In this document: positions 3,925 through 60,897 of the stretch, in pieces
Position numbering within the stretch: position 1 is the first letter of the stretch
Layout: the number at the start of each line of letters is the position of its first letter
Assembly (NCBI GenBank): GCA_041496545.1
Contig: JBGQET010000003.1
Location: forward strand, 21,208 to 85,207
DNA: 64,000 nt
Source: Candidatus Binatia bacterium
GTDB taxonomy: Bacteria; Desulfobacterota; Binatia; DP-6
Reading direction: 5' to 3'
Notes under the pieces: model-generated
Seen by the model: the letters and a program-made list of their open reading frames with translations, nothing else
Told to the model about the DNA's origin: nothing
Databases searched by the model: none
Program-made: the position numbers and the translations under genes

Positions 3925-5364
3925 TCACAAGCTGTGCGTCGAGTGAAACAGTCGATTGCCGGCGCCGGCGAGGAGCGCGAGGTTGTTGCGCAGCATCGCC
4001 GGGCGGAAGGCGGGGAAGTCGTGGAAGAAGCGACTGTGGCGCGCGGCACGCGGGTCGAAGTAGAGCTTCACGCTCTCCCAGAGCATGGTGCGCGCGATCT
4101 GTGCGCTCGACAGGTGCCGCGTGCGGACGTTCGCCATGTAGCCGTTGTAGCGCGCCAGGTCGTCGGGGTTCGTGACCAGCCCCTCGGCGAGCAGCTGGTC
4201 GCGCATCTCCGTCCGCGGATAGGGCGTCAGGCACTGCACGATCGGGAAGTCGAGCCGGAGCCCGCGGGCGTAGCGGAAGGTGCGGCGGATGGCGGCGCGG
4301 TCGTCGTCGGGGAGGCCTACGATGAAGCCGCCGACGGCCTTGATGCCGTTGTCCTGGAGGAGGCGGACGGCGCGCGGCGTCTCGTCCTCCGTCTTGCCGC
4401 GCTTGGGCGCGATGTCGAGCGCGGCGACGTTGGCGTCCTCGGCGTTCTCGATGCCCATGAAGACGGTGTCGAAACCCGCGCGCGCCATCTTCGGCGCCAG
4501 CGCCGGGTCCTTCGCGATGCCGTGCACGGACGCTTGCACGATGTAGCGGAGGTGGGAGAGCCGGGCGGCGTGAATCTCGTCGCACAGCTCCTTGAAGCGC
4601 GGCACGTCGATGGTGATGTTGTCGTCGACGAAGAAGACGCCGCGCACGCCGCGGCCGTCGAGGGCGCGCAGGTCCTCCAGCACGCGCGGGATGGGGAAGC
4701 GCCGGAACGTGCGCCCGTACATGCGGCGGATGGAGCAAAAGGTGCACGGCAGCGGGCAGCCGCGCGTCGTCTCCGCGACGTCGAAGCTGCGGTCGAAGTA
4801 GAAGGCGCCGCCGTAGACGCGCGCCTCCCGGCGCGGGAGCGGGAGCGAGTCGAGCTGGAGGAGGTCGCCGTCGGGGTTGTGATGCCAGCCATCGGGGCCG
4901 CGCCACGAGAACCCGGGGATGGCGCCGAGGTCGAGGCCGCTCCCCGCGAGACCGTCCACCAGCGCCCGGAAGGCAACCTCGCCCTCGCCGCGCACCAGGA
5001 AGTCGAAGAGCGCCCCGTCGCGCGCCGCCACCTGGTCGGCGAGCACGGTGGCGTGGTAGCCGCCGAGGACGTGGAGCGCGTGCGGTGCGGCGGCCCGCAC
5101 GGCGCCGGCGAGCAACCGCGCCGTCGCGTACTGGAACGACATCGCGGAGTAGCCGACCAGGTCCGGCTCGAAGCGCGCCACTTCGTCCAGCACGCGGCGG
5201 CGCACGCCCTTCGGGCGCAGCACGAGGTCGAGGATGCGCACCTCGTGCTCCGGGATCTGCGCCGCGATCGAGCAGAGCCCCAGGTTCGGGAACTTCATCA
5301 CCCGGTCGAGCGACGAAGCGGTGTCCGGCATGGCGACGAGCAGCACGCGCATGCCGGGGCCCAT
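3925..5364 (-). CDS. B12-binding domain radical SAM protein
   Basis: N-terminal cobalamin-binding-like domain (MRVLLVAMPD...). CxxxCxxC radical SAM motif (CPLPCTFCS). Start at MGPGMRV (cat 5362-5364) or MRV (5352). The upstream 160 aa of the ORF-track frame is an Arg-rich artefact. Confidence 0.85.
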   Translation of the reverse strand: MGPGMRVLLVAMPDTASSLDRVMKFPNLGLCSIAAQIPEHEVRILDLVLRPKGVRRRVLDEVARFEPDLVGYSAMSFQYATARLLAGAVRAAAPHALHVLGGYHATVLADQVAARDGALFDFLVRGEGEVAFRALVDGLAGSGLDLGAIPGFSWRGPDGWHHNPDGDLLQLDSLPLPRREARVYGGAFYFDRSFDVAETTRGCPLPCTFCSIRRMYGRTFRRFPIPRVLEDLRALDGRGVRGVFFVDDNITIDVPRFKELCDEIHAARLSHLRYIVQASVHGIAKDPALAPKMARAGFDTVFMGIENAEDANVAALDIAPKRGKTEDETPRAVRLLQDNGIKAVGGFIVGLPDDDRAAIRRTFRYARGLRLDFPIVQCLTPYPRTEMRDQLLAEGLVTNPDDLARYNGYMANVRTRHLSSAQIARTMLWESVKLYFDPRAARHSRFFHDFPAFRPAMLRNNLALLAGAGNRLFHSTHSL

Positions 5365-5821: not shown

Positions 5822-6763
5822 GTGCCGATGCACGTGGTCGTGGAGGGTCTCACCAAGCGCTACGGTGCCCGCGTGGCGCTCGCGGGCGTGTCGTTCACGG
5901 TCGCGGCGGGCGAGGTCGTGGGGCTCCTCGGGCCGAACGGCGCCGGCAAGTCGACGACCCTCGGCGTCCTCGCCACGCTCCTCTCCTTCGACGCCGGCAC
6001 GGTGGCCGTCGCGGGTCACCGGCTGCCGGCCGAGGCCGCGGCCGTGCGCGCCGGGCTGGGCTTCGTCCCCCAGCAGCTCGCCGTCTACCCGACGCTCACC
6101 GCGTCCGAGAACCTGCGCTTCTTCGGCCGGAACCTGGGGCTCGGGGCGCACGCCGCGGCCGCCGCCCGGGAGGTGCTCGAGCGGGTGGGGCTCGCGGACC
6201 GCGCGGACGAGCCGGTGGAGCGGTTCTCGATCGGCATGCGACGGCGGCTGAGCCTCGCCTGCGGCATCCTCCACCGGCCGCGACTCGTGCTCCTCGACGA
6301 GCCCGTGGTCGGCGTCGACCCGCAGTCGCGCGAGCGCGTGTTCGCCGCCGTCAGCGCGCTCGCCGGCGCCGGGGCCGCCGTGCTCTACAGCACCCACCAG
6401 ATGGAGGAAGCCGAGCGCCTCTGCCAGCGCGTGGTGCTGCTCGACGCGGGAAGCGTCCGCGCCGAGGGCACGCCCGCGGCGATGATCGCGCGTACGGGCA
6501 TCACCCCGCGGGTCGCGCTTCGCACCGCGCGGCCCCTGCCCGACGGCTGGCTGGCGGGCGTGCCGTCGGCCGAGCCGGCCGCTCATCACGACGGGGCGAC
6601 GGTCGTCGCGGTGCGCGACCCGACGATCGTCCCCGCCGTGCTCGCCGCCGCCGCGCGCGCCGGTGGCGAGGTGCTCGAGTTCTCGCTCACCCGGCCGAAC
6701 CTCGCGGACGCGTTCTTCGCGCTCACCGGCCACGCGCTCCGCGACGACGACGGGGCGGCGTGA
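5822..6763 (+). CDS. ABC transporter ATP-binding protein (ABC-2/DrrA-like)
   Basis: Walker A GPNGAGKST, ABC signature SIGMRRRL, Walker B LLDEP, H-loop. Confidence 0.9.
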   Translation: MPMHVVVEGLTKRYGARVALAGVSFTVAAGEVVGLLGPNGAGKSTTLGVLATLLSFDAGTVAVAGHRLPAEAAAVRAGLGFVPQQLAVYPTLTASENLRFFGRNLGLGAHAAAAAREVLERVGLADRADEPVERFSIGMRRRLSLACGILHRPRLVLLDEPVVGVDPQSRERVFAAVSALAGAGAAVLYSTHQMEEAERLCQRVVLLDAGSVRAEGTPAAMIARTGITPRVALRTARPLPDGWLAGVPSAEPAAHHDGATVVAVRDPTIVPAVLAAAARAGGEVLEFSLTRPNLADAFFALTGHALRDDDGAA

Positions 6764-23647: not shown

Positions 23648-24718
<1,071 letters not shown>

Positions 24719-29849: not shown

Positions 29850-29894
29850 CGCGAGGGCGCGCGTACCACAGACCGCGCGCCGCTCACAAGGCGG

Positions 29895-32168
29895 TCACGG
29901 TCCCTTGCAGATGTCGCTCGACACCAGGCACGAGGCAGCACCCGGCCACGTACCGCACGTGGTGATCCGGCTGGGAATCGTGCTCTTGAACAGGATGTCG
30001 TAGAGAGGCTGCGCGCCGGTGAAGGCGACGCCGAGCGAGACGACCGTGGTCGTTTGGCCCTCCGAGCAGCAGGGGCCCGTCGCCGGCATGCCGGTCAGGC
30101 TCTGGGGCCCTTGCGGTCCGGAGCCGGCGCGCGAGCAGCCGTCGGCGTTCTGATCGGCGAACTGGGCCGTACCCGTGCCCGTCGTGGGAGTCAGGATGAA
30201 GTCGAATTGTGTGACGACGGTATCGCCCGCGCCCACGTCGAAGTCGGTGGCGCAGTCGGTGGCCAGATCCCCGCTGCCGGTACTGTCCTGCCACGTGGTC
30301 GAGCGGACGGGGATGCCGAGCTGCGTGTTGACGCCGGGTGCGCCGGGCCCGCTTCGCGTGGTGATGATGCGGCCCATCGAGTTCGCGCCGGCCCCGGCCT
30401 GTGACGTGTCGCACGGCCCCTTGTCCGGCAGCGTCACGCACGTCTGCACGCTGACGCAGCACCCCGGACACGTCGCGCCGGGGCACCCGGTGGTCGCGGC
30501 GGTGCTGTCGGTCGTGCAGTACAGACCGGTGCGCGTGCCCGCGTTGCACGTGCGGCAGTCGGGGTTGGCGGTGCAGAAATGGCCGTTCGCGGAGGTGTCG
30601 GCGGAGCACCGCTTGATGCCCGCGCACGGGCATCGGAAGGTCGGATCTCCAGAGCACGAGCCGGCCAGGGTGTCGCAGGGCGCCGTGGTGGGATCGCAGA
30701 GGCCGTCGCGCGTGTCGCCGCTGTGCGTGATGTTCGCGGTCACCGTGGCGCCGGGCGCCGCCGCATCCCACACCGTCCCGCTGCCGAACGTTCCGCCGGA
30801 CTCGCACCCCTGCGGCTCGACCTTGGAACAGAAGTTCAGGGGCGGGATGGTGAAGATGGGCACGAAGAAGCCGGCGAAGGGCACGATGGCGTCGTGCTTG
30901 CAGTCGGCGTCGGGGGGCCCGGCGTCGATCGTGGTCACCACGCCGAGCGGGAAGGTGAACGGCGGCAGCGTGGAGACCCCCAGCGTGCCGTCCGACAAGC
31001 ACGTGCCGCCGCCCGGGCAGTCGCCGTCGTCGAGGCAGGGCGTCCGTCCGAGGCAGGTGTTCCCCGTGCCGCAGATGGAGTCGGTCTGGCACGTCGTCGT
31101 GGCGTCGTTGCTGCAGTGACCCAGGCAGCGGCCAGTGCTCTGGGTGATGATGCGCATCGGACCGCAGCACCCTGGGGGAATGGTGATCGTGGTCGTGCTG
31201 GTCGAGGTGGTCGTGGTGGTGGAGGTGCTGGTGGTCGTCGGGGGCGCGTCCTTGGTCGCGGGCAGGCACAGCTCCTTCACGACCTTCACGTCGAGGTACG
31301 CGTCGCCGAGGTTCGCGTTGCGGGTGCCGGCCTTGCGGCCCGCGAACTTCGGCTGGGGAGGCGTCTTCGCGGGATGGACCAGATAGCAGACCAGGTGCCC
31401 GTAGGGGTCGACCGTCCCCTCCCCTTCCTTGTCGACGGGCGTGCAGAGCTTTGTCGGCTTGACGACGTCGTACGCGAAGCCCGCCGGGCTCGAGAAGTCG
31501 TCCTTCACCGTCACCTGCGTCGGCGCGAAGGCCGGCATCTTGTTGTCCCTGATCTTGTAGCACTTGAAGTTGTTCACACCCGAAGCGTCTCCGGGCGGCG
31601 TCCCGAGCGGAGGCAGCGGGCTCGGCAGGCAGATCTTCGCGGCCGGGTCGCAGACGCGCCCGCTCGGCGGGCAGACGTTGGCGGTGTCCGGCGACTTGCA
31701 CTTGGTGGGAGCCCCGAGGTCCGTCTCGAGCGAGCGCACAAGCAGCGAATCCGGAGCGATCGCGTTCAGCTTCAGCGTGCCGAACTGGTCGAAGGTGAGG
31801 TGCGGCACCGTCTTGTAGCCGGTGTCCTCTTTCTCGGGCGCGGTGTTCTTGAGCTGATAGCCCACCATGTAGACGCTGCTGTGGACGGGCGTGAACACGG
31901 AAGCGCCGTGCGTCTTGGTGGCGGGGTTGCAGACGCTGAGGATCCGGAAGGCGTCGTAGTGCTTGCCCGTCTCGAACTGGTCGCTCAGCAGGATGTTCGA
32001 CTTGACGGGCTTCAGGATGGGCGGCGTGTTGGCCGGGACCTTCGCGACCACCACCTTGTAGCAGAGGTAGTGATCGCCCGGGACGTCGACCGCGCGGGCC
32101 CCCAGGGGACCGCCGAGCAGAAATGCGACCACCGACACCGATCTGATTGCGCCGCCTGCGTGTCTCAT
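29895..32168 (-). CDS. large secreted protein, paralog A: repeated CY/LCxPxxK N-terminal modules + Thr/Ser linker + Cys-rich C-terminal domain
   Basis: AGGAGG RBS. Signal peptide. Four N-terminal modules with xCYKxxx ... LCxPxxK. A TTTSTSTTTTTSTSTTT linker. The roughly 430-aa Cys-rich C-terminal domain is shared with the 32306..35581 gene. No family recognised. Confidence 0.8.
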   Translation of the reverse strand: MRHAGGAIRSVSVVAFLLGGPLGARAVDVPGDHYLCYKVVVAKVPANTPPILKPVKSNILLSDQFETGKHYDAFRILSVCNPATKTHGASVFTPVHSSVYMVGYQLKNTAPEKEDTGYKTVPHLTFDQFGTLKLNAIAPDSLLVRSLETDLGAPTKCKSPDTANVCPPSGRVCDPAAKICLPSPLPPLGTPPGDASGVNNFKCYKIRDNKMPAFAPTQVTVKDDFSSPAGFAYDVVKPTKLCTPVDKEGEGTVDPYGHLVCYLVHPAKTPPQPKFAGRKAGTRNANLGDAYLDVKVVKELCLPATKDAPPTTTSTSTTTTTSTSTTTITIPPGCCGPMRIITQSTGRCLGHCSNDATTTCQTDSICGTGNTCLGRTPCLDDGDCPGGGTCLSDGTLGVSTLPPFTFPLGVVTTIDAGPPDADCKHDAIVPFAGFFVPIFTIPPLNFCSKVEPQGCESGGTFGSGTVWDAAAPGATVTANITHSGDTRDGLCDPTTAPCDTLAGSCSGDPTFRCPCAGIKRCSADTSANGHFCTANPDCRTCNAGTRTGLYCTTDSTAATTGCPGATCPGCCVSVQTCVTLPDKGPCDTSQAGAGANSMGRIITTRSGPGAPGVNTQLGIPVRSTTWQDSTGSGDLATDCATDFDVGAGDTVVTQFDFILTPTTGTGTAQFADQNADGCSRAGSGPQGPQSLTGMPATGPCCSEGQTTTVVSLGVAFTGAQPLYDILFKSTIPSRITTCGTWPGAASCLVSSDICKGP
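31195..31270. repeat. coding low-complexity (ACC/ACG)n tract encoding the Thr/Ser linker of paralog A
   Basis: The plus strand reads ggtcgtggtggtggaggtgctggtggtcgtcgg..., which translates on the minus strand as TTTSTSTTTTTSTSTTT. Confidence 0.8.
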
Positions 32169-32196
32169 GAGGACGAGCCTCCTAGTTAGTTTGGAG
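32169..32196. promoter_or_regulatory. hairpin sequestering the AGGAGG RBS of paralog A
   Basis: On the mRNA (minus) strand: GAGCCTCC-aaactaacta-GGAGGCTC, an 8-bp stem with a 10-nt loop. The 3' arm contains the AGGAGG RBS 8 nt upstream of the ATG at 32168. Confidence 0.5.
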
Positions 32197-32291
32197 GCTC
32201 AGCTAACACGCGTGGGGTGCGACCCACAAGAGCTCTCGCGCTCGCCGGGCCTATGATCGGCCGGAACGCGTCCCCGGTCGCATGCTCGAAT

Positions 32292-32305
32292 GGAACAATT
32301 GTTCC
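32292..32305. promoter_or_regulatory. 14-bp perfect palindrome GGAACAATTGTTCC immediately after the stop of paralog B, upstream of paralog A
   Basis: Perfect dyad symmetry with an AT-rich centre in an otherwise GC-rich intergenic region. Operator-like. Confidence 0.5.
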
Positions 32306-35300
32306 TCACTGCCCCTGGCAGGGGTCGGTCGTCAGAGTACAGGAACCTGGAACGAACGAGCCGCAGGCGGTGATCTTCGTCGGGATGGTGCTGGCGAAGG
32401 TCAGGTCGAAGAGCGGCGGGCCGCCGCTGGGCGCGGTGCCGACGGAGACGACCGTCGTCGTCTGCCCGACGGTGCAACCCGGGCCAGCCGCGGGGGCGCC
32501 GGTCAGCGAGACCGGGCCGTCGGGGCCGGAGCCGGAGCGGAAGCAGCCGTCGCCGTTCTGATCCTTCCACTCCGCGGTGGCGACGGCGGAGCTCGGACGC
32601 AGCACGAAGTCGAACTGGGTGATCGGCAGGTCGCCGCTTCCGCTGTCGAAGCCGGTCTGGCAGGACGAGAGCTGATCGCAGGTCTCGCCCGCCGGGCAGT
32701 TGGTGCTGGCCCCGGAGCACTTGCACGTGCCGGTGCCGATATCGCACGCCGTACCCGGGCACTGGGTGTCCAGGGTGCAGGCGACGCCGCTCCCGTGGGT
32801 GCAGTGGAACGGCGTGGACTCCTGCCAGGTCGTGGAGTGCACGGGGATGTTGACCTGGGTGTGGACGCCGGCCGTGCCGGCCGGGGTGCGGGTGATGATG
32901 GTGCGGGCCTTCGAGTTGTTGCCCGCGCCCGGCTTGGTCAGGTCGCAGGTGCCCTTGGCGCCCAACGTGTCGCAGGTGAGCGCCGCGACGTTGGTACAGC
33001 AGCCGGGGCAGGTGGCGCCGGCGCCGCAGCCGGTGATGCCGTTGGTGGTGTCCGAGGTGCAGAAGAGCCCCGCCCGCGCGCCCGAGGCGCACTTGAAGCA
33101 ACCACCCAGGATCGTGCTGCCGGTGCAGGATTTCCCGACGCTCGAGTGGTCGTTGGAGCAGCGCTTCTGATTCGTGCAGTCGCCGTTTCCGGCGCAAGGC
33201 CAGGACGCGTCGCTGGCGCAGGTTCCGGCGCTGCTGGAGCACTGCGTGGCCGGGTCGCAGGTCCCGTCCGCCGTGTCGGTGCTGAGCTTGATGCTCGCCG
33301 TGACCGCGCTGGGCGGTGCGGTGGAATCCCAGACCGTCCCGTTCCCGTCGGCGCCGCCGGCGGCGCAGCCGCTGTTGACGACCTGGGAACAGTAGTTGAG
33401 GGCCGAGATGAAGAAGATCGGCACGTTGAAGTTGCCCGCCTGGATGATCGCCGGATGGGCACAGTTCGCGTCGGCGGGGCCCGCGTCCACGGTGGTGAGG
33501 ACGCCCAGCGGGAAGGGGAAGGCCGGCAGCGAGTCCACCGTCAAGCTGCCGCCCGAGATGCACGTCTCACCTCCGGGGCATCCCGCGTTGTCGAAGCAGG
33601 TCGTTCCCATCGACGTGCTGCAGTGACCCGTGCTCTGCGTCGTGATGCGGACCGGCGCGCTGCACGCGAGCGTCGTGGTGGTGGTGCTGGTCGTGGTGGT
33701 GGTCGACGCCGTCGTGGTCGTGGTGGGGTGCGTGGTGGTGGTCGTCGGCTGCGTCGTGGTGGTGGTCGACGTCGTCGTGGAGGTGGTGGGCAACACCTTC
33801 TTGTAGGTGGCGATCGCGGCCGACCAGCGGTGCCCCGTGGTGAGCGTCGCCGTCGTGCGGTATTGCCCCATCGCCGAGACGACCTTGAAGCCGGAGAAGA
33901 TGCTGGCCGGGATCTGGCCGCCGCTCGTCGGGTTCCGCGACACGGGCAGCTCGGTGAAGCTCTGTCCCTGGATGAACGTCATCGTGGTCGGCGCCTCGAC
34001 GCCGATCGCGCTGATCAGCAGCTCGTCGTTCATCGTCGTGACCGCGGTGTACCCCGAGTCGGGGAACTTGTCGTTGTCCCAGCCGTCGGAGGTGCGGTCG
34101 AGCATGTTGATGTTCTTGAACTCGTTGACGCTCACCGCCTTGGTGTGGGTGAGCGGGTGGTTCACCGTCACCATGTTCCCCGTCTGCAGCGCCTTCACGT
34201 TGTGCGCGGCGCAGACGATGGTCCGAACGCCGCGGCGGTCGAGGCCGACGTTCGTGTCGACGTCCAGGGTGTAGACGTTCCCCTGCGTGTCGGAGCAGCT
34301 CACCATGCCGTCCATGGGGTCCATGGCGAAGGTGACGATGATGCTGTCCCCCGCCGTGACACCCGGCGCCGGCACGGTGACCAGGGTGGCGGTGCTGTCC
34401 GTCACGTCGTGGGCGACGCCGATGTTGCGCACCAGCATGGGCGGCATCGGCATCATCGTGGTGGTGGTCGTGCTCGTGGTGGTCGCGGTGGTGGTCGCGT
34501 GCGTCGTGGTCGAGGACGTCGTCGCGGTGGTGGTCGCGTGCGAGGTGGACGTCGTCGTCGTGACGCTCGTCGAGGTCGTCGGCGCGTGGGTGGTGGTGGT
34601 CGTCGTCACACACGCCGAGTCGTCGATGCGGCAGCCGAAGCAGCGCCGGCAGTCCGGGCTGTTGGCCGGCGTCTGGATGAGAGCGCCCATGCAGCTCGTG
34701 ATCGCGCCCGTGGCGCTCCCGGCCGGCAGACACTCGCAGGTCTCGCCGCACTCCGACTCGATGACCGCATCGCCGCACTCGCCCTCGCACACCGAGCCGA
34801 GCGGTGCGTCCTTGCCCGCGGGCACGCACAGCTCGATCGCTCCTCGCGCCTTCAGCACCGCGTAGTGGAAGTCGGCGTTGTCGATGGCCACCACGCGGCC
34901 GGCGGACGGCCCTCGGCGCGGGACCCGCTGCGCCTCGTAGCAGAGGAGGTGCTGGGGGTGGTCGGCCGCCGACCCACCCGTGCCGGCCTTGTCGGTCGGC
35001 GCGCAGAGCCTCGTGATGCGCTGCAGGCGGAAGACCGCCGAGCCGAACCGGTCCGTGACCAGCGGCGGCTTCGGGCGGCTGAACCGCGTGCGGCGTTGCT
35101 TGCGGGCGAGATAGCAGGTGAACTCGTCGACGCCGGTGTCGATCGGCGGCTTGGGATCCCCGAGGCTACCCTCGGCGCCCATCGCCGATGGAGCCAGCAA
35201 CCGCTCCGGTCGCAGCACCGTGATCGGATGGCGGCCGAAGAGGTCGAAGGCAACGTGGTTGCTGCGGGCGAAGCGCGCGCCGCTCAACCGGTAGCCGACC

Positions 35301-35581
35301 AGCGACACCTTCGGGTGGCGCGGCTGCGCGCCCTGATCCTTGCGTGCCGGATTGCAGAGCGACACGATCCGCCGCACGCGGTACGTCGCCTTTCCGAACT
35401 TGTCCTCCAGCACGCGACTCGTGGGCGCAAAGCTCGGACCGTCGCCGGTCGCGGCCGCCGTGTAGCACAGATACGGATCGACCGGCGTCTCCACCCGCCC
35501 CTCCGCGGTGAGGGCGTAGGCGGCGTACGCCAGCACGGCCACGCCAACGAGGCGAAGGACTCCTCTTTGATCAGTCGTCAC
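32306..35581 (-). CDS. large secreted protein, paralog B: same N- and C-domains as paralog A with an extra ~230-aa middle domain between two Thr-rich linkers
   Basis: GTG start with AAGGTG RBS. A hydrophobic N-terminus. The C-terminal 430 aa aligns block-by-block with paralog A (RITTQSTG.C, FPFPLGV.TT.DAGP.DA.C.H, CPGCC, TIITR, VHTQVNIPV, QFDFVLRP, GQTTTVVS.G). Confidence 0.8.
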   Translation of the reverse strand: MTTDQRGVLRLVGVAVLAYAAYALTAEGRVETPVDPYLCYTAAATGDGPSFAPTSRVLEDKFGKATYRVRRIVSLCNPARKDQGAQPRHPKVSLVGYRLSGARFARSNHVAFDLFGRHPITVLRPERLLAPSAMGAEGSLGDPKPPIDTGVDEFTCYLARKQRRTRFSRPKPPLVTDRFGSAVFRLQRITRLCAPTDKAGTGGSAADHPQHLLCYEAQRVPRRGPSAGRVVAIDNADFHYAVLKARGAIELCVPAGKDAPLGSVCEGECGDAVIESECGETCECLPAGSATGAITSCMGALIQTPANSPDCRRCFGCRIDDSACVTTTTTTHAPTTSTSVTTTTSTSHATTTATTSSTTTHATTTATTTSTTTTTMMPMPPMLVRNIGVAHDVTDSTATLVTVPAPGVTAGDSIIVTFAMDPMDGMVSCSDTQGNVYTLDVDTNVGLDRRGVRTIVCAAHNVKALQTGNMVTVNHPLTHTKAVSVNEFKNINMLDRTSDGWDNDKFPDSGYTAVTTMNDELLISAIGVEAPTTMTFIQGQSFTELPVSRNPTSGGQIPASIFSGFKVVSAMGQYRTTATLTTGHRWSAAIATYKKVLPTTSTTTSTTTTTQPTTTTTHPTTTTTASTTTTTSTTTTTLACSAPVRITTQSTGHCSTSMGTTCFDNAGCPGGETCISGGSLTVDSLPAFPFPLGVLTTVDAGPADANCAHPAIIQAGNFNVPIFFISALNYCSQVVNSGCAAGGADGNGTVWDSTAPPSAVTASIKLSTDTADGTCDPATQCSSSAGTCASDASWPCAGNGDCTNQKRCSNDHSSVGKSCTGSTILGGCFKCASGARAGLFCTSDTTNGITGCGAGATCPGCCTNVAALTCDTLGAKGTCDLTKPGAGNNSKARTIITRTPAGTAGVHTQVNIPVHSTTWQESTPFHCTHGSGVACTLDTQCPGTACDIGTGTCKCSGASTNCPAGETCDQLSSCQTGFDSGSGDLPITQFDFVLRPSSAVATAEWKDQNGDGCFRSGSGPDGPVSLTGAPAAGPGCTVGQTTTVVSVGTAPSGGPPLFDLTFASTIPTKITACGSFVPGSCTLTTDPCQGQ
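33661..33790. repeat. coding Thr-codon repeat tract (linker 2 of paralog B)
   Basis: gtggtggtgctggtcgtggtggtggtcgacg... encodes PTTSTTTSTTTTTQPTTTTTHPTTTTTASTTTTTSTTTTT. Confidence 0.8.
34441..34620. repeat. coding Thr-codon repeat tract (linker 1 of paralog B)
   Basis: Encodes TTTTTTHAPTTSTSVTTTTSTSHATTTATTSSTTTHATTTATTTSTTTTT. Confidence 0.8.
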
Positions 35582-35975
35582 GGTTGCACCTTCCCGCGTC
35601 GGTGGTTACGCGACCCGCCACGACATCGTCAAGAAATTTCTCCTGTTTGCCTCCTCTCTACGCGTTCAACACAGCGCCCGCCACAGCAGCGCCATACGTA
35701 TGTCTCCATCGACCAGCTCACCACGCAGCGCACCTCACACCACCTCACGCTGCGAAGCATGCAGCGCGTGAGCGCACGCACCTCGTCTCGACGAACGGCG
35801 ATGCGCGCGCAGCGCGCGAGCCAACGTCCCGAAGGCGCGACGCGAGCCGCGAAGAGTAACCGGACGCGGCTTTGCCGCAGCCGGCGCGGGGTCTGGGGGC
35901 GCGCGGCAGAGCCGCGCGGGAGTCAGTCCGCAGGCGCGCGGAGCGCGCCGAGCGCCGGACGGGCCCCCGGATGCG

Positions 35976-38900
35976 TCAAGGAAGGCAGTACAGCTTCAAA
36001 CCGTCCGAATCGATCGTGTTCCGCGTCGTCCGCGCCTTGAGCTTGATCGACTTGTTGGCGGACTTCGTCGGTGACACGAGCGGGACGTGCACGTCGACGC
36101 GCGGGCCGCAGGCGTCGAACAGTGACGTCTGCGCCGCGACGGCCGCCGCGAGCAACCCGGCGCGGTTGACCGCATCCTCCGGCCTCTTGGCACCGTCCTT
36201 GGCGCTCGGCTTCGACACGTCCACCTGCACCGGAGTCCCGAGCGTCAGCCCACCCGGCAGGCAAGCCGGCAGGCTCGGGTCGTGCACGTTGGCGCAGAGC
36301 CAGAGGTGGAAGACGCACTCGGACGCTCCGGCTCCGAAGTCACACGACGGGTCACCGTTCTGGCAGGACTGCTTCACGTCCGGCTTGCCGAACCTGTCGA
36401 GCGACGGATGGTCGAAGGCGAACTCGATCACGCAGTCGCTGAGCGAGCTCCCCTTGCCGCCGATAAACTGGGCGGTGGGCGGCGGCTCGAGGAAGCAGAG
36501 CGGCGAGCAGCCGTCGCCGGCCGTCGTGTTGCCGTCGTCGCACTGCTCGCCTCGGGCCGTGTCGACGATGCCGTCGCCGCAGCGCGCCGGCCGGCAGTCT
36601 GTGCGGCAGCTCGCGTTGGGAGCGTTCGAGTTCGCGGCGCCGAGGTCGCACTGCTCGACGCCGGTCTGCACGAAGCCGTCGCCGCAGCGCGCCGCGATGC
36701 ACCCGACCAGGCAGGCGTCGGTGTTGCTCGCGTTGCCGTCGTCGCACGCCTCGCCCGGCTCGGGGATGCCGTTGCCGCAGCACGGGGCGAACGGCGTGTG
36801 GACGCAGACGTTCGCCGCCTCGTCGCAGGTGTCGGACGTGCAGGGGTCCGTGTCGGCGCAGTTACGCGCCTGACCCGCCGTGCAGACGCCGCCCTGGCAG
36901 GTGTCGTTCACGCTACAGAACTGACCGTCGTCGCACGTCGTGCCGTTCACCTTGTTGGGATGCGTACAGAGGCCGGAGGCGCAGACGTCGTTGCTGCACG
37001 CGTTCCCGTCGTCGGTGCACGCGCCCGTGCGGTTGGTGTACACGCAGCCCTGCGACGGGACGCAGGCGTCGGTGGTGCACTCCTTGCCGTCGTCGCAGAT
37101 CATCGGCGCGCCGGGCTGGCAGCCGCCCGCCCCGTTGCAGTGATCGCCCACCGTGCAGAGGTTGCCGTCGGAGCACGGCGTGGTGGCGGGCGCCGGCGGA
37201 TGCGTGCACCCCGTCGGCTCGACGCAGGAGTCGAGCGTGCACGGATTCGGGTCCGTGCAGTCGAGGGCGACGCCCGGCACGCAGGCGCCGACGGAGCAGC
37301 GCTCGTTGCCGTTGCAGACCAGGCCGTCGGGGCACGGCGTTCCGTCGGGCAGGAGCTGGTGCCGGCAGCCGAGCAGCGGGTCGCAGGAGTCGATGGCGCA
37401 GCCGCCGCTGACGTTGCAGGCCTCGAAGGCGCAGAACGCGGAGCAGCCGTCGCAGCTGAGCGCCGTTCCTCCGCCGTCGTCGCACTGCTCCGGATACTCC
37501 ACGATGCCGTTGCCGCAGGTCGGGCAGGGATCGAGGCAGTCGGTCTGCCCGGGCGCGGTGCAGCGGGGGATCGGGCTGTTGACGGCGAGCGGCTTGATGA
37601 TCGCGCCGGCGACGACGTTCGGGGCGACGCCGGTCGGGAACTGGAACGTGTTGGTGCCGGGGGTCGAGGGCCCCGCTGACGTGGCGGTCGCGTCGAGCAG
37701 ACCGGCGACGGTGATGTGCTCGCGGCCGGTGAGCGTGATCCCGCCGGCGATGGGAGCGCGCGCGAGAAGACTCGCGGTCGACGCGACCGAGACGTTGCAC
37801 CCGAAAACGTCGATCGAGCCCCCGTCTCCACAACTGCCGGTCGCGTCGCAGCCTCCAGCCCCGACGTCGACGGTGTTCATGAGCGACACGGTTCCCGAGC
37901 CGACGAAACCACCCGCGATGAGCACCGTACCGCCGAGGCTGGCGGCGTTGCGCCCGCTCGCGTCGATCTTCCCGGTCACGGTCAGGTCGCGGCCCGCGAG
38001 CAGGTCGATGCTGCCGGCGCTGCTGCCGCCCGAGACGTCCACCGGGCCGGCGATCGTCGCGTCCAGGTTGGCGTCGACCGAGAAGTCGCCGCCCGTGCTG
38101 AAGGTCCCGTTGCCGTGCGTCGACAGCGCGGCGGTCGACTGCACGGTGATCCCACCCACCGAGCTCAACGTGATGCTGCCACCCGTGCCGTCCGGGCTGG
38201 CACCCTCGACGGTGATGTTCCCCGTGACGATCACGTCCCCGAAGGTCGCGTCGGCGTCGAGCGACCCGCCGCAGGCGCCGAAGCTGCCGTCGTTCGCGGT
38301 GCTACCCTTCGCGGAGATGCTGTCGGTGAGCTGGACCGTGGTGCCGGCGCGGACGCTGATCGAGGCCCCGCTCCCGGCATCACCGTTGGCGTTGCCGGAT
38401 ACCTGGGCGAGCACGACGTCGTCGTGCGCGTCCACGCTGACGGTGCCACCGCCCCCGCCGCTCACGTCGAGGTCGCTGCTGATCTCGACGCGGCTGCCGG
38501 TCGAGGTGACGCTGATGCCGCCGCCGGCCGACTGGGAGCCGCCCGCGGCCTGGACGTCGCTCTGGGCCGTGAACGTCACGGCGCCGCCGGCGACGAACGT
38601 GAGCAGCCCGCCGGCGCCGGCGACGCTCAGGTTGCTCGCCAGCACCCTGCCCGACACCGTGATCGACCCACCGGCGTCGATCTCCATCGTGCCGGCGGAC
38701 ATGTCGGCGGAAACGTCGATGCGTCCGGCGGAGGTGCCGCTCCGTTGCACGTCCACGGCGCCCGTCGTCTGGATCACGATCGTGCCGCCCACGTTGAGTG
38801 GGGCCGCGCCGTTGCCCCGGCCGTCGATCCAGGAGCCGGGCGCGAGCGTCAGGCTCGCCGCCTTGAGGGTGACGACGCTCGAGCCGGTCGCCAGGGTGCC

Positions 38901-39133
38901 GTTGCCCGAGATGACGACCGCCCGCGACCCGAAGTCGAGCGTGCAGCCGTTGCCGATGACGAAGGTCTTCGTGATCGTGCACGTCGCCGGCGGCCCGGAC
39001 GGACACCCCGGGTCCTGCGACACGATCTGCGCCGCGTTGCAGGCGGAGAGGGCGCGTGCGTCACGCGCGAGCGCGAGGGTCGCGAGGACGCCTGCCGCGC
39101 ACGCGAGCCCGGACGCGACGCGCCTATTCCGCA
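35976..39133 (-). CDS. very large secreted Cys-rich repeat protein (Gly-rich beta-helix/adhesin-like N-region, tandem CxDxxxC modules, three Myxococcus-type Cys-rich repeats)
   Basis: Putative GTG start 8 nt inside the upstream beta-helix gene, giving signal peptide VRNRRVASGLACAAGVLATLALARDARA. About 10 tandem PCxDGxxCTxDxCxxxGC modules. CGNGIxEPGExCDDGN x3. The C-terminus ends in a ...LC.P..K...LYCLP module resembling those of the paralog N-domains. The start is uncertain. Confidence 0.75.
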
Positions 39134-40077
39134 CAGTCCCGCCCGTTGATCTCGCACTCGGACGGCATGACGACGCCCAGCCGCTCACCGTTGCCGCTCG
39201 CCCGGTTGCCGCCGCCGTCGACGCCCCCGACGTGGATGCCGCGCTGGCCGTTGTTGGTCGCGGTGTTGCCCTGGAGCCGGATGTCGCCGCCCGAGCCCGT
39301 GATCCCGTCACCCGCGTTGCCGCGGGCGACACAGCCGTGCACGTCGTGGTGCATGCCGGCGAGCCGGATGCCGTCGCGCGCCCCGTCCGCGGCCACGCAG
39401 TCGACCAGCGCGAGTCCCATGCCGTTGATGCTGATCGCCGCCATGCCGCTCCCCTCGGCCACGATGCCCGCCCCGGGGGCGCCGAGCCCGGCGTTCCACG
39501 CGGCGACCGAGTATCCGAAGCGGCGGCTGTTCACCGCGCGCGTGGCGTGGATGCCGAACCACGTGCCGCCGAGCGCGAAGCCGTCGCGGCCGGACTCGCG
39601 CGCCTCGACGTCACGGATCTCGTAGCCCGGCGCGTCGACGTTGACGCCGTCGCGCCCGCTGCGGACGACGGCGATCGTCGAGAGCAGCCCGAGCGAGTCG
39701 GCGCCGTGCGCCAGCACGCCGTCGCGGAACCCTTCGATCGAGGCGCGCCCACCGCTGCTCACGATGCGCGTCCCACCCGCGCCGCCGCGGAGCACCCAGA
39801 TGCCGGCGCCGTGGCCGGTGCCGCGGAGCGTTTTCCCGTGCAGGTCGATGGTGAGCGCCGCGCCGTGCGGCTCAGCCTGGACGAGCAGACCGTCGCCGGG
39901 GCAGGCCTCGCGCACCACCGGGTCGTCGCCGAGGACCACGTCGGCCACCACCACGTCGCCGCAGGCGCAGGGGACGCGCTGGCCCTGGACGTCGTCGCCA
40001 CAGAGCTTGGCGCTCGCCGGAGTGCCGGCGATCGCCAGCAGCAACATCGTCGACGCGATGCGCCAATCCATGGGCAC
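39124..40077 (-). CDS. secreted right-handed parallel beta-helix repeat protein
   Basis: AAGGAGG RBS 10 nt before the GTG at 40077 (ATG at 40071 as an alternative). Signal peptide. Gly/Asp-rich PbH1-like repeats (NxGxGIxxxG). Translationally coupled to the 35976..39133 gene. Confidence 0.8.
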   Translation of the reverse strand: MPMDWRIASTMLLLAIAGTPASAKLCGDDVQGQRVPCACGDVVVADVVLGDDPVVREACPGDGLLVQAEPHGAALTIDLHGKTLRGTGHGAGIWVLRGGAGGTRIVSSGGRASIEGFRDGVLAHGADSLGLLSTIAVVRSGRDGVNVDAPGYEIRDVEARESGRDGFALGGTWFGIHATRAVNSRRFGYSVAAWNAGLGAPGAGIVAEGSGMAAISINGMGLALVDCVAADGARDGIRLAGMHHDVHGCVARGNAGDGITGSGGDIRLQGNTATNNGQRGIHVGGVDGGGNRASGNGERLGVVMPSECEINGRDCAE

Positions 40078-53784: not shown

Positions 53785-53903
53785 CCCCGCCCCGCCGGGC
53801 GTCCGCCTACGGCTTCGCCTCCGCGCTCACCGCGCAGGTCGCGCCGCAGGCGGCGGAGCCCCATGCGCGGCCGGACTAGCCGGCCGGCCGGCGGCGCGTC
53901 AAG

Positions 53904-54884
53904 TCAGTTCGCGTGGACGGTGGTGGCGGCGATCCCGCCCTTCTGCACGCAGGTCATGTCCTCCTGCGGGGATCCGGTCGGGTAGTAGAACAGGAACAGG
54001 TTGCAGTGCTCGTTCACGTCGGTGAAGGGGCCGAACTTGAACGTCGTGTCGGTCGGGTTCTGATAGTCGCACGTCCACTGGACGCCCTGGATCTGCGGCG
54101 AGTTCTGTTCGTTGAAGCGGATGAAGGCCGGGTCCAGGTAGCCGTCCTGGTTGTAGAGCAGCTCCGTCGCGTGATCCTCGTAGCCGTCCCACGTGCTGGC
54201 CGTGAGCTTGACGCCGCGGTAGTGGTAGTGCCCGGTGATGGCGAGCAGGTTCACGGGCTTCGGGAAGATGCACTTGGTGGTCGCGGTCGCGAAGCCGGGC
54301 GGCACCACGACGTCGCGGTCCTGACCGAAGAACGCCCCGACGTACGACGTCACCTTCTTCGGCGGCATCGAGTAGAGGTCGAAGATGGCGAAGCCCTGCC
54401 CCGTCGGCGTGGTGAGGAGTCCCGAGTCGACGAAGTGGGTCTGCGCCACGAGCTGCTCGCCCTTGGTGAAGTGGAAGGCGAGCCCGGGGGGGAGCTTCCA
54501 GTCGAGGTAGAGGCTCTGGCTGGCGAGGACGAGCTGCCAGACCGAGAAGTCGAGCGCCATGTTGCAGGGCTCGGCGTGGTCGGCGACCGTCATGGTCGGG
54601 TCCTGCGCCCGATAGAGATGCACGTGGTGACTGCCCCCGCTCACCTTGATGCGGACCCGGTTGACGGCGAGGTCCTTCTTCCCGGGCAGCTTCATGTAGG
54701 TGCACTGGGTGACCTCTTTGCTCCGCTCGACCGTGACCGGACCGACGTCGATCTGCTGCCCGGGCTTGGGGGGCCGCTGCATGTGCGGCTTCCTGAGGTG
54801 GCTCGCGTGGAGAGGGGAGACGCTCGCACATGCTACGGCGAGTGCGGTGAGCCAAAGGCGGGGCCGGAGGCGGGGCAAAGTCAT
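53904..54884 (-). CDS. secreted hypothetical protein (His-rich; possible copper monooxygenase-like fold)
   Basis: Signal peptide MTLPRLRPRLWLTALAVACASVS. HHVH, HxH (GHYHY) and Met/Cys motifs vaguely reminiscent of the PHM/DBH copper sites. No confident family. Confidence 0.7.
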   Translation of the reverse strand: MTLPRLRPRLWLTALAVACASVSPLHASHLRKPHMQRPPKPGQQIDVGPVTVERSKEVTQCTYMKLPGKKDLAVNRVRIKVSGGSHHVHLYRAQDPTMTVADHAEPCNMALDFSVWQLVLASQSLYLDWKLPPGLAFHFTKGEQLVAQTHFVDSGLLTTPTGQGFAIFDLYSMPPKKVTSYVGAFFGQDRDVVVPPGFATATTKCIFPKPVNLLAITGHYHYRGVKLTASTWDGYEDHATELLYNQDGYLDPAFIRFNEQNSPQIQGVQWTCDYQNPTDTTFKFGPFTDVNEHCNLFLFYYPTGSPQEDMTCVQKGGIAATTVHAN

Positions 54885-54966
54885 ACGCGTTGCGATTACG
54901 CCCGGCGCAGGGTCTCGTCAACACCAAAGGCCGCGAACATCGGCACGGCGGGCGCCGCCACGCCCG

Positions 54967-60543: not shown

Positions 60544-60897
60544 ATGAAGCTTCCCGCCGAGGCCGAGCTGCTGCGCATCTTCATCGGCGAGAGTGACAAG
60601 CGCCACGGTCGCCCGCTCTACGAGGTGATCGTCGAGGAGGCGCGCCGCCGCGGCATGGCGGGCGCGACGGTGCTCCGCGGCACGCTCGGCTTCGGGGCCA
60701 ACAGCCGCATCCACACCGCGAAGATCCTCCGCCTCTCGGAGGATCTGCCGATGGTGGTCGAGATCGTCGACACGCCCGAGCGCATAGCGGCCTTCCTTCC
60801 GGAGCTCGACGCGATGATCGAAGAAGGGCTCGTGACGCTCGAGAAGGTCCGCTTGATCGCCTACCGTCACGCCGGCGCGCCGCCGGGCACGAGCTGA
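60544..60897 (+). CDS. DUF190 domain protein (crcB-associated)
   Basis: 117 aa, P-II-like DUF190 pattern (LLRIFIGESDKRHGRPLYEVIVEEARRRGMAGATVLRG..GFG). It sits 16 nt after crcB. This pairing is a recognised conserved neighbourhood. Confidence 0.85.
   Translation: MKLPAEAELLRIFIGESDKRHGRPLYEVIVEEARRRGMAGATVLRGTLGFGANSRIHTAKILRLSEDLPMVVEIVDTPERIAAFLPELDAMIEEGLVTLEKVRLIAYRHAGAPPGTS

Follow-up and report, generated by a model that had tools for sequence, protein, structure and literature searches.

The transposase genes of IS10 and IS50 are reportedly protected from outside transcription by an arrangement called fold-back inhibition. In RNA thermometers of the ROSE and fourU types, the Shine-Dalgarno (SD) motif is masked by a structure with mismatches or weak pairs that melts between 30 and 42 °C. 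The SD-sequestering stem of IS200 tnpA is an experimentally proven translational repressor that blocks 30S binding (PMC4513863). Stable stems over the ribosome-binding site (RBS) cut initiation approximately 10-fold per 1.4 kcal/mol (PMC5934652), and stable RBS hairpins are still translatable through ribosome standby sites (de Smit and van Duin; PMC5934652). Here we describe the spacer between two paralogous genes, B (32306-35581) and A (29895-32168), in a 64,000-nt stretch of DNA with a G+C content of 72%. This whole stretch is referred to as the window, all coordinates are those of the window, and both genes lie on its minus strand. By sequence comparison, the region around the two genes matches contig JBGPJA010000008.1 (NCBI assembly GCA_041485145.1) without any difference, and Candidatus Binatia metagenome-assembled genomes are the closest named relatives. 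The spacer contains a hairpin over the SD of A, and our preferred interpretation, to which we assign a probability of about 0.35, is that this hairpin insulates A from transcription that reads through from B.

The hairpin in the leader of A consists of GAGCCUCC-N10-GGAGGCUC on the minus strand. Its 5′ arm, the anti-SD GAGCCTCC (32193-32200), is joined to the 3′ arm, GGAGGCTC (32175-32182), through a CA-rich loop of 10 nt, AAACTAACTA (32183-32192), and the arms form a perfect 8-bp stem with six G-C pairs. The arms and their positions agree with a preliminary description of this region, which had also located AGGAGG in the 3′ arm. This is correct for GGAGG, which starts the 3′ arm, but not for the first A of AGGAGG (32183-32178), which is the final base of the loop. 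The SD is followed after 9 nt by the ATG of A at 32168, which lies 6 nt outside the stem. This start codon is supported by the conservation of ortholog N-termini, in which M1 is invariant.

Folded alone, the hairpin has an energy of -14.0 kcal/mol (z = -4.6). In contexts of 50, 110 and 191 nt the minimum-energy fold retains it, and in 40 out of 40 flanking contexts none of its eight pairs has a probability below 0.98, the mean being 0.997 or higher. The preliminary description had allowed that competing folds might be more stable, and across these 50- to 191-nt folds and 40 contexts the hairpin was not outcompeted. The SD is paired in a local stem that is stabler than its pairing with 16S rRNA, the SD:anti-SD duplex being worth -8.6 to -10.2 kcal/mol. 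At 45, 55 and 75 °C the stem retains -12.0, -9.5 and -4.5 kcal/mol, respectively, and even at the highest of these temperatures no other fold has a lower energy; a role as an RNA thermometer was therefore rejected. We also rejected the hairpin as an intrinsic terminator on account of its 10-nt loop and the GUCCUCAUG that follows it, with no U-run.

We ranked A among 42 candidate SD-led starts, each consisting of GGAGG ahead of the start codon of a long open reading frame (ORF), taken from related G+C-rich DNA that totals about 173 kb. Within this set the longest perfect stem over an SD is that of A (8 bp), which also has the highest probability of a paired SD (1.0). The cruder fraction of paired bases at -16 to -5 was 0.76 for A, inside the control range of 0.30-0.85, so that A is singled out by the dedicated stem analysis and is not distinguished by the crude measure. 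A search of Rfam 15 returned only a chance match to SNORD10 (E = 0.96), and for the whole window no match at gathering thresholds. The window contains no other copy of the spacer, and hence no repeat or mobile-element origin was found. Based on the folding models, a role of the hairpin as a translational control element, as had been proposed for it, is plausible. The stability of the structure upholds that proposal; its lack of conservation in most orthologs does not.

Our reading of the hairpin builds on the position of its 5′ arm relative to a candidate promoter. The promoter of B (35603-35632, minus strand) consists of TTGACG (35632-35627), an 18-nt spacer and TAACCA (35608-35603), a motif common to A and B orthologs. 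In the form TTGAC(G/A)-N18-TA(A/G/C)nCn it is found upstream of B and the B orthologs in L018 and L017, the A orthologs in L003, L006 and L009, and upstream of L020 and L012:938. Three strict copies are present in the window (35603-35632, 53873-53902 and 54893-54921), where 0.11 are expected; all are on the minus strand and closely precede an ATG of that strand. The looser TTGnnG-N18-TAnnnn is found eight times against 1.85 expected, and five of these eight sites, including the one ahead of A, are directly upstream of an apparent gene start. For A, the motif identifies a candidate -35 element, TTGTGG (32224-32229, minus strand), which is a degenerate copy of TTGACG, and 18 nt after it a candidate -10 element, TAGCTG (32200-32205, minus strand), to be compared with TAGCCG in L018 and TAGTCC in L003. 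We put the odds that TTGTGG-N18-TAGCTG is a degenerate, correctly spaced copy of the family promoter at about even. The candidate -10 is 31 nt ahead of the ATG, and its final base is the first base of the 5′ arm. With the usual start 7-8 nt past the -10 hexamer, transcription would begin at C32193 or A32192, which are the end of the arm and the first base of the loop. The 5′ arm would accordingly be located between the -10 and the predicted start, and the loop, the counterpart of a CA-rich tract ahead of the SD in orthologs, would form the 5′ end of the transcript of A itself.

A sigma-70-like class of the form TTGAC(G/A)-N17/18-TAnnCn also recurs ahead of many genes in related Binatia-like contigs, and TTGACG-N18-TAnnCn could supply Binatia-like genomes, for which there are no experimental data on promoters, with a consensus. 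At two sites on the minus strand, 54893-54884 (TAATCGcaacgcgtATG) and 53873-53864 (TAGTCCggccgcgcATG), the ATG is just 8 nt past the -10 hexamer, which suggests leaderless mRNAs at both; the first is the start of a 326-aa gene (53904-54884). Short A+T-rich dyads are located just upstream of B-type -35 elements, namely AGAAATTTCT at 35640-35650 (minus strand) and GAAAT-N6-ATTTC at 7918-7936 of L018, and could represent UP-element-like sequences or a binding site.

No terminator was found between B and A by a generic terminator scan of the spacer, types that lack a U-tract being beyond the reach of such a scan. The sole strong local stem in the spacer is the SD hairpin; in relatives, terminators appear as clear 10-12 bp G+C-rich stems where they are expected. 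With no detectable terminator after B, transcription from the conserved promoter of B would probably enter A. We hypothesise that A itself would be driven by the weak, degenerate TTGTGG-N18-TAGCTG in the spacer, with the anti-SD octamer between its -10 and the predicted transcription start. RNA from this promoter would begin at the CA-rich loop (~32193/32192), would not contain the 5′ arm and would therefore present AGGAGG in the open; when the predicted transcript starting at 32192 is folded, the SD is just partly paired or largely open. Read-through RNA from B would instead carry both arms, fold at -14 kcal/mol and leave A poorly translated, because the hairpin outcompetes SD:16S pairing of about -9 to -10 kcal/mol. 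The hairpin would thereby uncouple the translation of A from the transcription of B, and disruption of the 5′ arm, for example from GAGCCTCC to GAGCGAGC, would be expected to raise translation of A on read-through RNA. Such insulation would matter at this locus because A is directly behind a co-oriented gene, an arrangement seen in this genome only among those compared; the A orthologs of L003, L006/L011, L008 and L009/L010 are solitary genes. Separate regulation of the two paralogs, which the preliminary description had suggested together with tight regulation, is plausible for a different reason, namely that B has a conserved promoter and A a degenerate copy with a hairpin that would be confined to read-through RNA. 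We find no support for the regulation being tight.

The same order of -10, anti-SD, CA-rich tract and SD was identified in two homologs. In L012, TTGACC-N18-TAGCAT is followed by CCCCTCCC, ACACAG and GGGAGGAGG, which form a stem of 6 bp plus 2 after a bulge (-13.9 kcal/mol), and in L003 the -10 TAGTCC overlaps CCCTCCT. The anti-SD arm regions of A, L003 and L012 share their placement and have no alignable sequence. We consider the recurrence suggestive because the probability of meeting CCTCC by chance within 10 nt is only ~0.02, a frequency taken from the GGAGG count. In a regular-expression scan of both strands of the 173 kb for -10, anti-SD, SD and start, only A and L012 matched. A control with non-cognate pairs of discriminator and SD was confounded, since the three promoters with CCTCC match every GGAGG SD, and was not used. 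That a promoter-embedded anti-SD, located between the -10 and the start as in A, L003 and L012, is a recurrent insulation device in this secreted DUF7450/Cys-rich family is a speculative extension that we consider unlikely to hold.

The initiation regions of A orthologs are homologous to that of A and share the CA-rich tract, A/GGGAGG, a gap of 9 nt (5 in L008) and the ATG. In the alignment of these leaders, the anti-SD arm appears as an insertion specific to the window. L003 has a weaker version with a 6-bp stem and a 22-nt loop, and neither conservation of the structure nor covariation was seen in the leaders of L003, L006, L008 and L009. The hairpin is not a conserved element of the family, because its 5′ arm is specific to the window and the SD is open in L006, L008 and L009. 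In L006 and L009, a different hairpin closely precedes the CA-rich tract and SD (GGCAG-N7-CTGCC at ~5953-5971 and GGCAGA-N6-TCTGCC at ~4954-4973, respectively). This common leader hairpin leaves the SD unmasked and may be a leader-stabilising stem.

Several observations weigh against insulation. The candidate promoter of A is weak by the E. coli consensus, with three of six matches at -35 and two of six at -10, and a generic sigma-70 scan did not call it. The SD of the orthologs in L006, L008 and L009 is largely open, with pairing probabilities of 0.17-0.38. The layout is present in only three of the eight family genes with a recognisable promoter (A, L003 and L012); a -10 followed by an anti-SD is absent from B, L017, L018, L006 and L009 and from L020, and L008 and L019 have neither a clear family promoter nor this layout. 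Its recurrence was spotted after the fact in small numbers, and A and L003, being orthologs, are not independent cases. Folding predictions give ~60% pairing for the translation-initiation regions of these genomes in general. Among the 230 GGAGG in the window, two distinct inverted repeats place a perfect stem of at least 8 bp over GGAGG, the hairpin of A and one at ~60721-60745, so that one such repeat at an RBS among ~50 genes would not be improbable by chance. Finally, the size of any effect is uncertain, because stable RBS hairpins can be translated via ribosome standby sites (PMC5934652).

The second of these repeats, GATCCTCCG-N5-CGGAGGATC (60721-60745), has a 10-bp stem and a 5-nt loop, is probably inside coding DNA and served as our chance control. 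It bears on the alternative that survives best, which we regard as possible if somewhat doubtful, that both features of the spacer are fortuitous: in DNA of 72% G+C, the strong AGGAGG would by accident have its complement in an octamer 10 nt upstream, and a spacer rich in A+T would by accident contain a palindrome, neither being under selection. The palindrome in question, GGAACAATTGTTCC (32292-32305), is directly after the TGA stop of B (32306-32308) and is perfect, 14 bp long and A+T-centred, as previously noted. The window contains 24 perfect palindromes of at least 14 bp against 20 expected, and GGAACAATTGTTCC is the only one of these with at least 50% A+T. The preliminary description had called it rare in G+C-rich DNA, and for its composition it is, with 0.09 expected; this is weakly so, since the feature was picked after the fact and 8% of simulated windows have such a palindrome (P ~0.08). 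Chance is also consistent with the two independent stems over GGAGG, one of them in coding DNA, with the lack of either feature in other loci and of Rfam matches, and with a spacer that is lineage-specific, as the syntenic relative L018 does not have gene A. It accounts less well for the compositional rarity of the palindrome and for a hairpin that is the extreme value among the 42 SD-led starts. It also leaves the placement of the 5′ arm exactly between a promoter-like -10 and the expected start to coincidence, although that placement recurs in two homologs with no alignable sequence there and CCTCC is so infrequent in 10 nt. For the palindrome by itself, a fortuitous or lineage-specific sequence is the most likely explanation, and it has no part in the insulation that we propose for the hairpin.

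If there were no internal promoter, A would be translated from a bicistronic B-A mRNA only, and the hairpin would act as a constitutive attenuator that keeps the A:B ratio low or as a switch opened by a trans-acting factor, such as a small RNA, a helicase or ribosomes that use the CA-rich loop as their standby site for loading. We consider this unlikely. The lack of a detected terminator, the strong and conserved promoter of B and the degenerate one of A are all compatible with it, as is the stability of the hairpin in every read-through context, and the single-stranded CA-rich loop resembles standby or enhancer tracts (PMC5934652; PMC4513863). However, the 137-nt gap rules out coupling in which ribosomes finishing B melt the stem, and no partner RNA or protein was identified. 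A stem of -14 kcal/mol would shut A off almost completely, an apparent waste of an intact 757-aa gene with a consensus SD. The TTG-N21-TAG geometry, which fits the family promoter and is at the right distance from the ATG, also counts against this reading.

The remaining alternatives ascribe a function to the DNA. An operator of a dimeric transcription factor at the palindrome, acting from ~106 bp ahead of where transcription of A is predicted to start, or a roadblock at the end of B, appears quite improbable to us. It would be in keeping with the perfect symmetry of the 14-bp dyad around A+T, with its rarity for the composition and with its position in non-coding DNA upstream of a gene. We take the palindrome to resemble ArsR/SmtB-type TGAACA-N2-TGTTCA sites. 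Its GAAC-N4-GTTC core, GAACAATTGTTC (32293-32304), has the dyad of the Gram-positive LexA SOS box or Cheo box (GAAC-N4-GTTC, consensus CGAACRNRYGTTYC; PMC2248561), and the palindrome matches 11 of the 13 specified positions of that consensus, which is of the Gram-positive type and may not be that of Binatia. In contrast to a LexA box, the palindrome is single-copy, is not conserved and is not ahead of an SOS-type gene, a secreted Cys-rich protein being no typical member of an SOS or metal response. The window holds no second copy at up to two mismatches, and at three mismatches there is one site, at 24015, inside a coding region. None of the 17 related loci that we compared, including the ortholog upstream regions, has a copy. 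The core is not enriched in the window, with 17 matches at up to one mismatch against 18.5 expected, and of its two exact occurrences one is in coding DNA. The scanned ORFs of the window yielded no gene for a transcription factor, lexA, ArsR, DNA repair or any further DNA-binding regulator, and enriched sites ahead of several lexA, recA or repair genes were not seen within the window. A position ~70 bp upstream of the -35 is also the wrong place for a repressor.

The preliminary description had offered the palindrome as a dimeric regulator site or the loop of a terminator, and neither is supported, because it is single-copy, is absent from relatives and forms a weak stem with no U-tract. Its RNA would pair over 5 bp (-4.7 kcal/mol) and continue with AUUCGAG, with no U-run. 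The terminator scan did not call it, and we rejected it as a terminator by comparison with the G+C-rich stems of relatives. A sigma-54 promoter was dropped by eye since aGGAAC-N5-TTCC has CC where the -12 needs GC, and an ECF promoter was dropped, also by eye, since GGAAC is not followed by a CGT/GTT -10 at 16-18 nt on either strand. The palindrome is thus unique within the window and unconserved in the related loci, an outcome that the preliminary description had foreseen as telling against it, and gives no handle on a regulon, whichever reading of the hairpin holds. Least probable of all is a DNA-level operator formed by the 26-bp inverted repeat GAGCCTCC-N10-GGAGGCTC, overlapping the -10 and start of the candidate A promoter with half-sites one helical turn apart, for despite its perfect symmetry, its 18-bp centre-to-centre distance and its span from the end of the -10 to ~+18, a classic repressor position, the window has no other copy at up to three mismatches (only itself against 1.43 expected), one arm is the SD, which fully explains the RNA-level importance of its complement, and no regulator gene is nearby.

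Paralog A encodes 757 aa composed of DUF7450 repeats, a Thr-rich linker and a Cys-rich C-terminal domain. Paralog B encodes a secreted, modular, Cys- and Thr-rich protein of 1091 aa from the GTG at 35581 (1078 aa in the NCBI record). The two share 47% identity across the C-terminal ~476 aa, which form the Cys-rich domain, and 30% in the N-terminal part, and both contain signal-peptide-like N-terminal segments and Thr-rich linkers. The paralogy was therefore correctly recognised in the preliminary description, and the word giant, applied there to both genes, overstates their size. In a Pfam search, the N-terminal region of A matched DUF7450, and no match was obtained for the C-terminal domain or for B. 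The family is modular, and Thr/Ser-rich linkers connect DUF7450 repeats, a middle domain of ~230 aa and Cys-rich C-terminal domains of several kinds. In metagenomic proteins (P0005, P0066, P0067, P0068; L016) these modules are recombined with tyrosinase, disintegrin and others.

In L018, the gene order is luciferase-like, FemAB-like, ClpA, ClpS, short-chain dehydrogenase, B ortholog, NAD-binding dehydrogenase and CMD. Gene A is absent, so that the NAD-binding dehydrogenase gene directly follows the B ortholog. The genes that the window has in addition, including paralog A, are between the short-chain dehydrogenase and NAD-binding dehydrogenase genes. Two further ones at 35976-40077 (minus strand) code for a 317-aa beta-helix protein and a 1052-1118-aa Cys-rich DUF4215/Dicty_CTDC-like protein. 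The Cys-rich C-terminal domain is missing from the B ortholog of L018, relative to which it represents a gain in B. No second contig with a tandem B-A pair was found among those compared. On the P0010 contigs (JGI 3300056388, 3300043331), a 711-aa gene begins 59 nt past a gene for a 640-aa family member and runs in the same direction, and these may be another tandem pair. Downstream of A, the 45-nt gap to the NAD-binding dehydrogenase gene (29850-29894, minus strand) contains two G+C-rich stems, CCGCcttgtgaGCGG and GCGCGCGgtctgtggtaCGCGCGC, and this gene has no recognisable SD ahead of its ATG.

Overall, the spacer and its surroundings are a fairly ordinary intergenic region, and the hairpin is a further instance of a well-known type of element. 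If insulation is wrong, the region is a structured G+C-rich spacer. If it is correct, one gene would give two kinds of mRNA, one that starts at its own promoter and is translatable and one that arises by upstream read-through and silences itself, and this could make the independent expression of tandem duplicated paralogs easier with no terminator in between. A trick known mainly from insertion sequences would then serve ordinary chromosomal genes of an uncultured phylum, where it would decouple freshly duplicated neighbours. It would also provide a simple rule, an anti-SD between the -10 and +1, for genome-wide searching.

Among the described systems, RNA thermometers resemble the leader of A in having the SD in the 3′ arm of a hairpin in the 5′ untranslated region, and differ in that the stem of A is perfect, with 8 bp and six G-C pairs, and persists to 75 °C. 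The coat-gene hairpin of MS2 is of comparable stability (about -11 kcal/mol, against -14 at A). However, it includes the start codon and is translated via flanking standby sites, whereas the ATG of A is 6 nt outside the stem and the CA tract forms the loop. The IS200 stem likewise buries a near-consensus SD in a stable local structure with a C/A-rich single-stranded tract nearby. It is part of its own transcript and acts with an antisense small RNA and Hfq, whereas the 5′ arm of A is predicted to be outside the transcript of A and no antisense RNA is evident. The closest likeness is to IS10 and IS50, in which one arm of a repeat is upstream of the gene's own start and the other over the RBS, so that only read-through RNA folds and the gene's own transcript, as predicted for A, is translatable. 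A differs from these transposase genes in being a chromosomal gene for a secreted protein, with no transposase, terminal inverted repeats or mobile element, and in that its promoter and start are predicted from sequence. The upstream transcription against which A would be protected would originate in a paralog, not in arbitrary flanking DNA.

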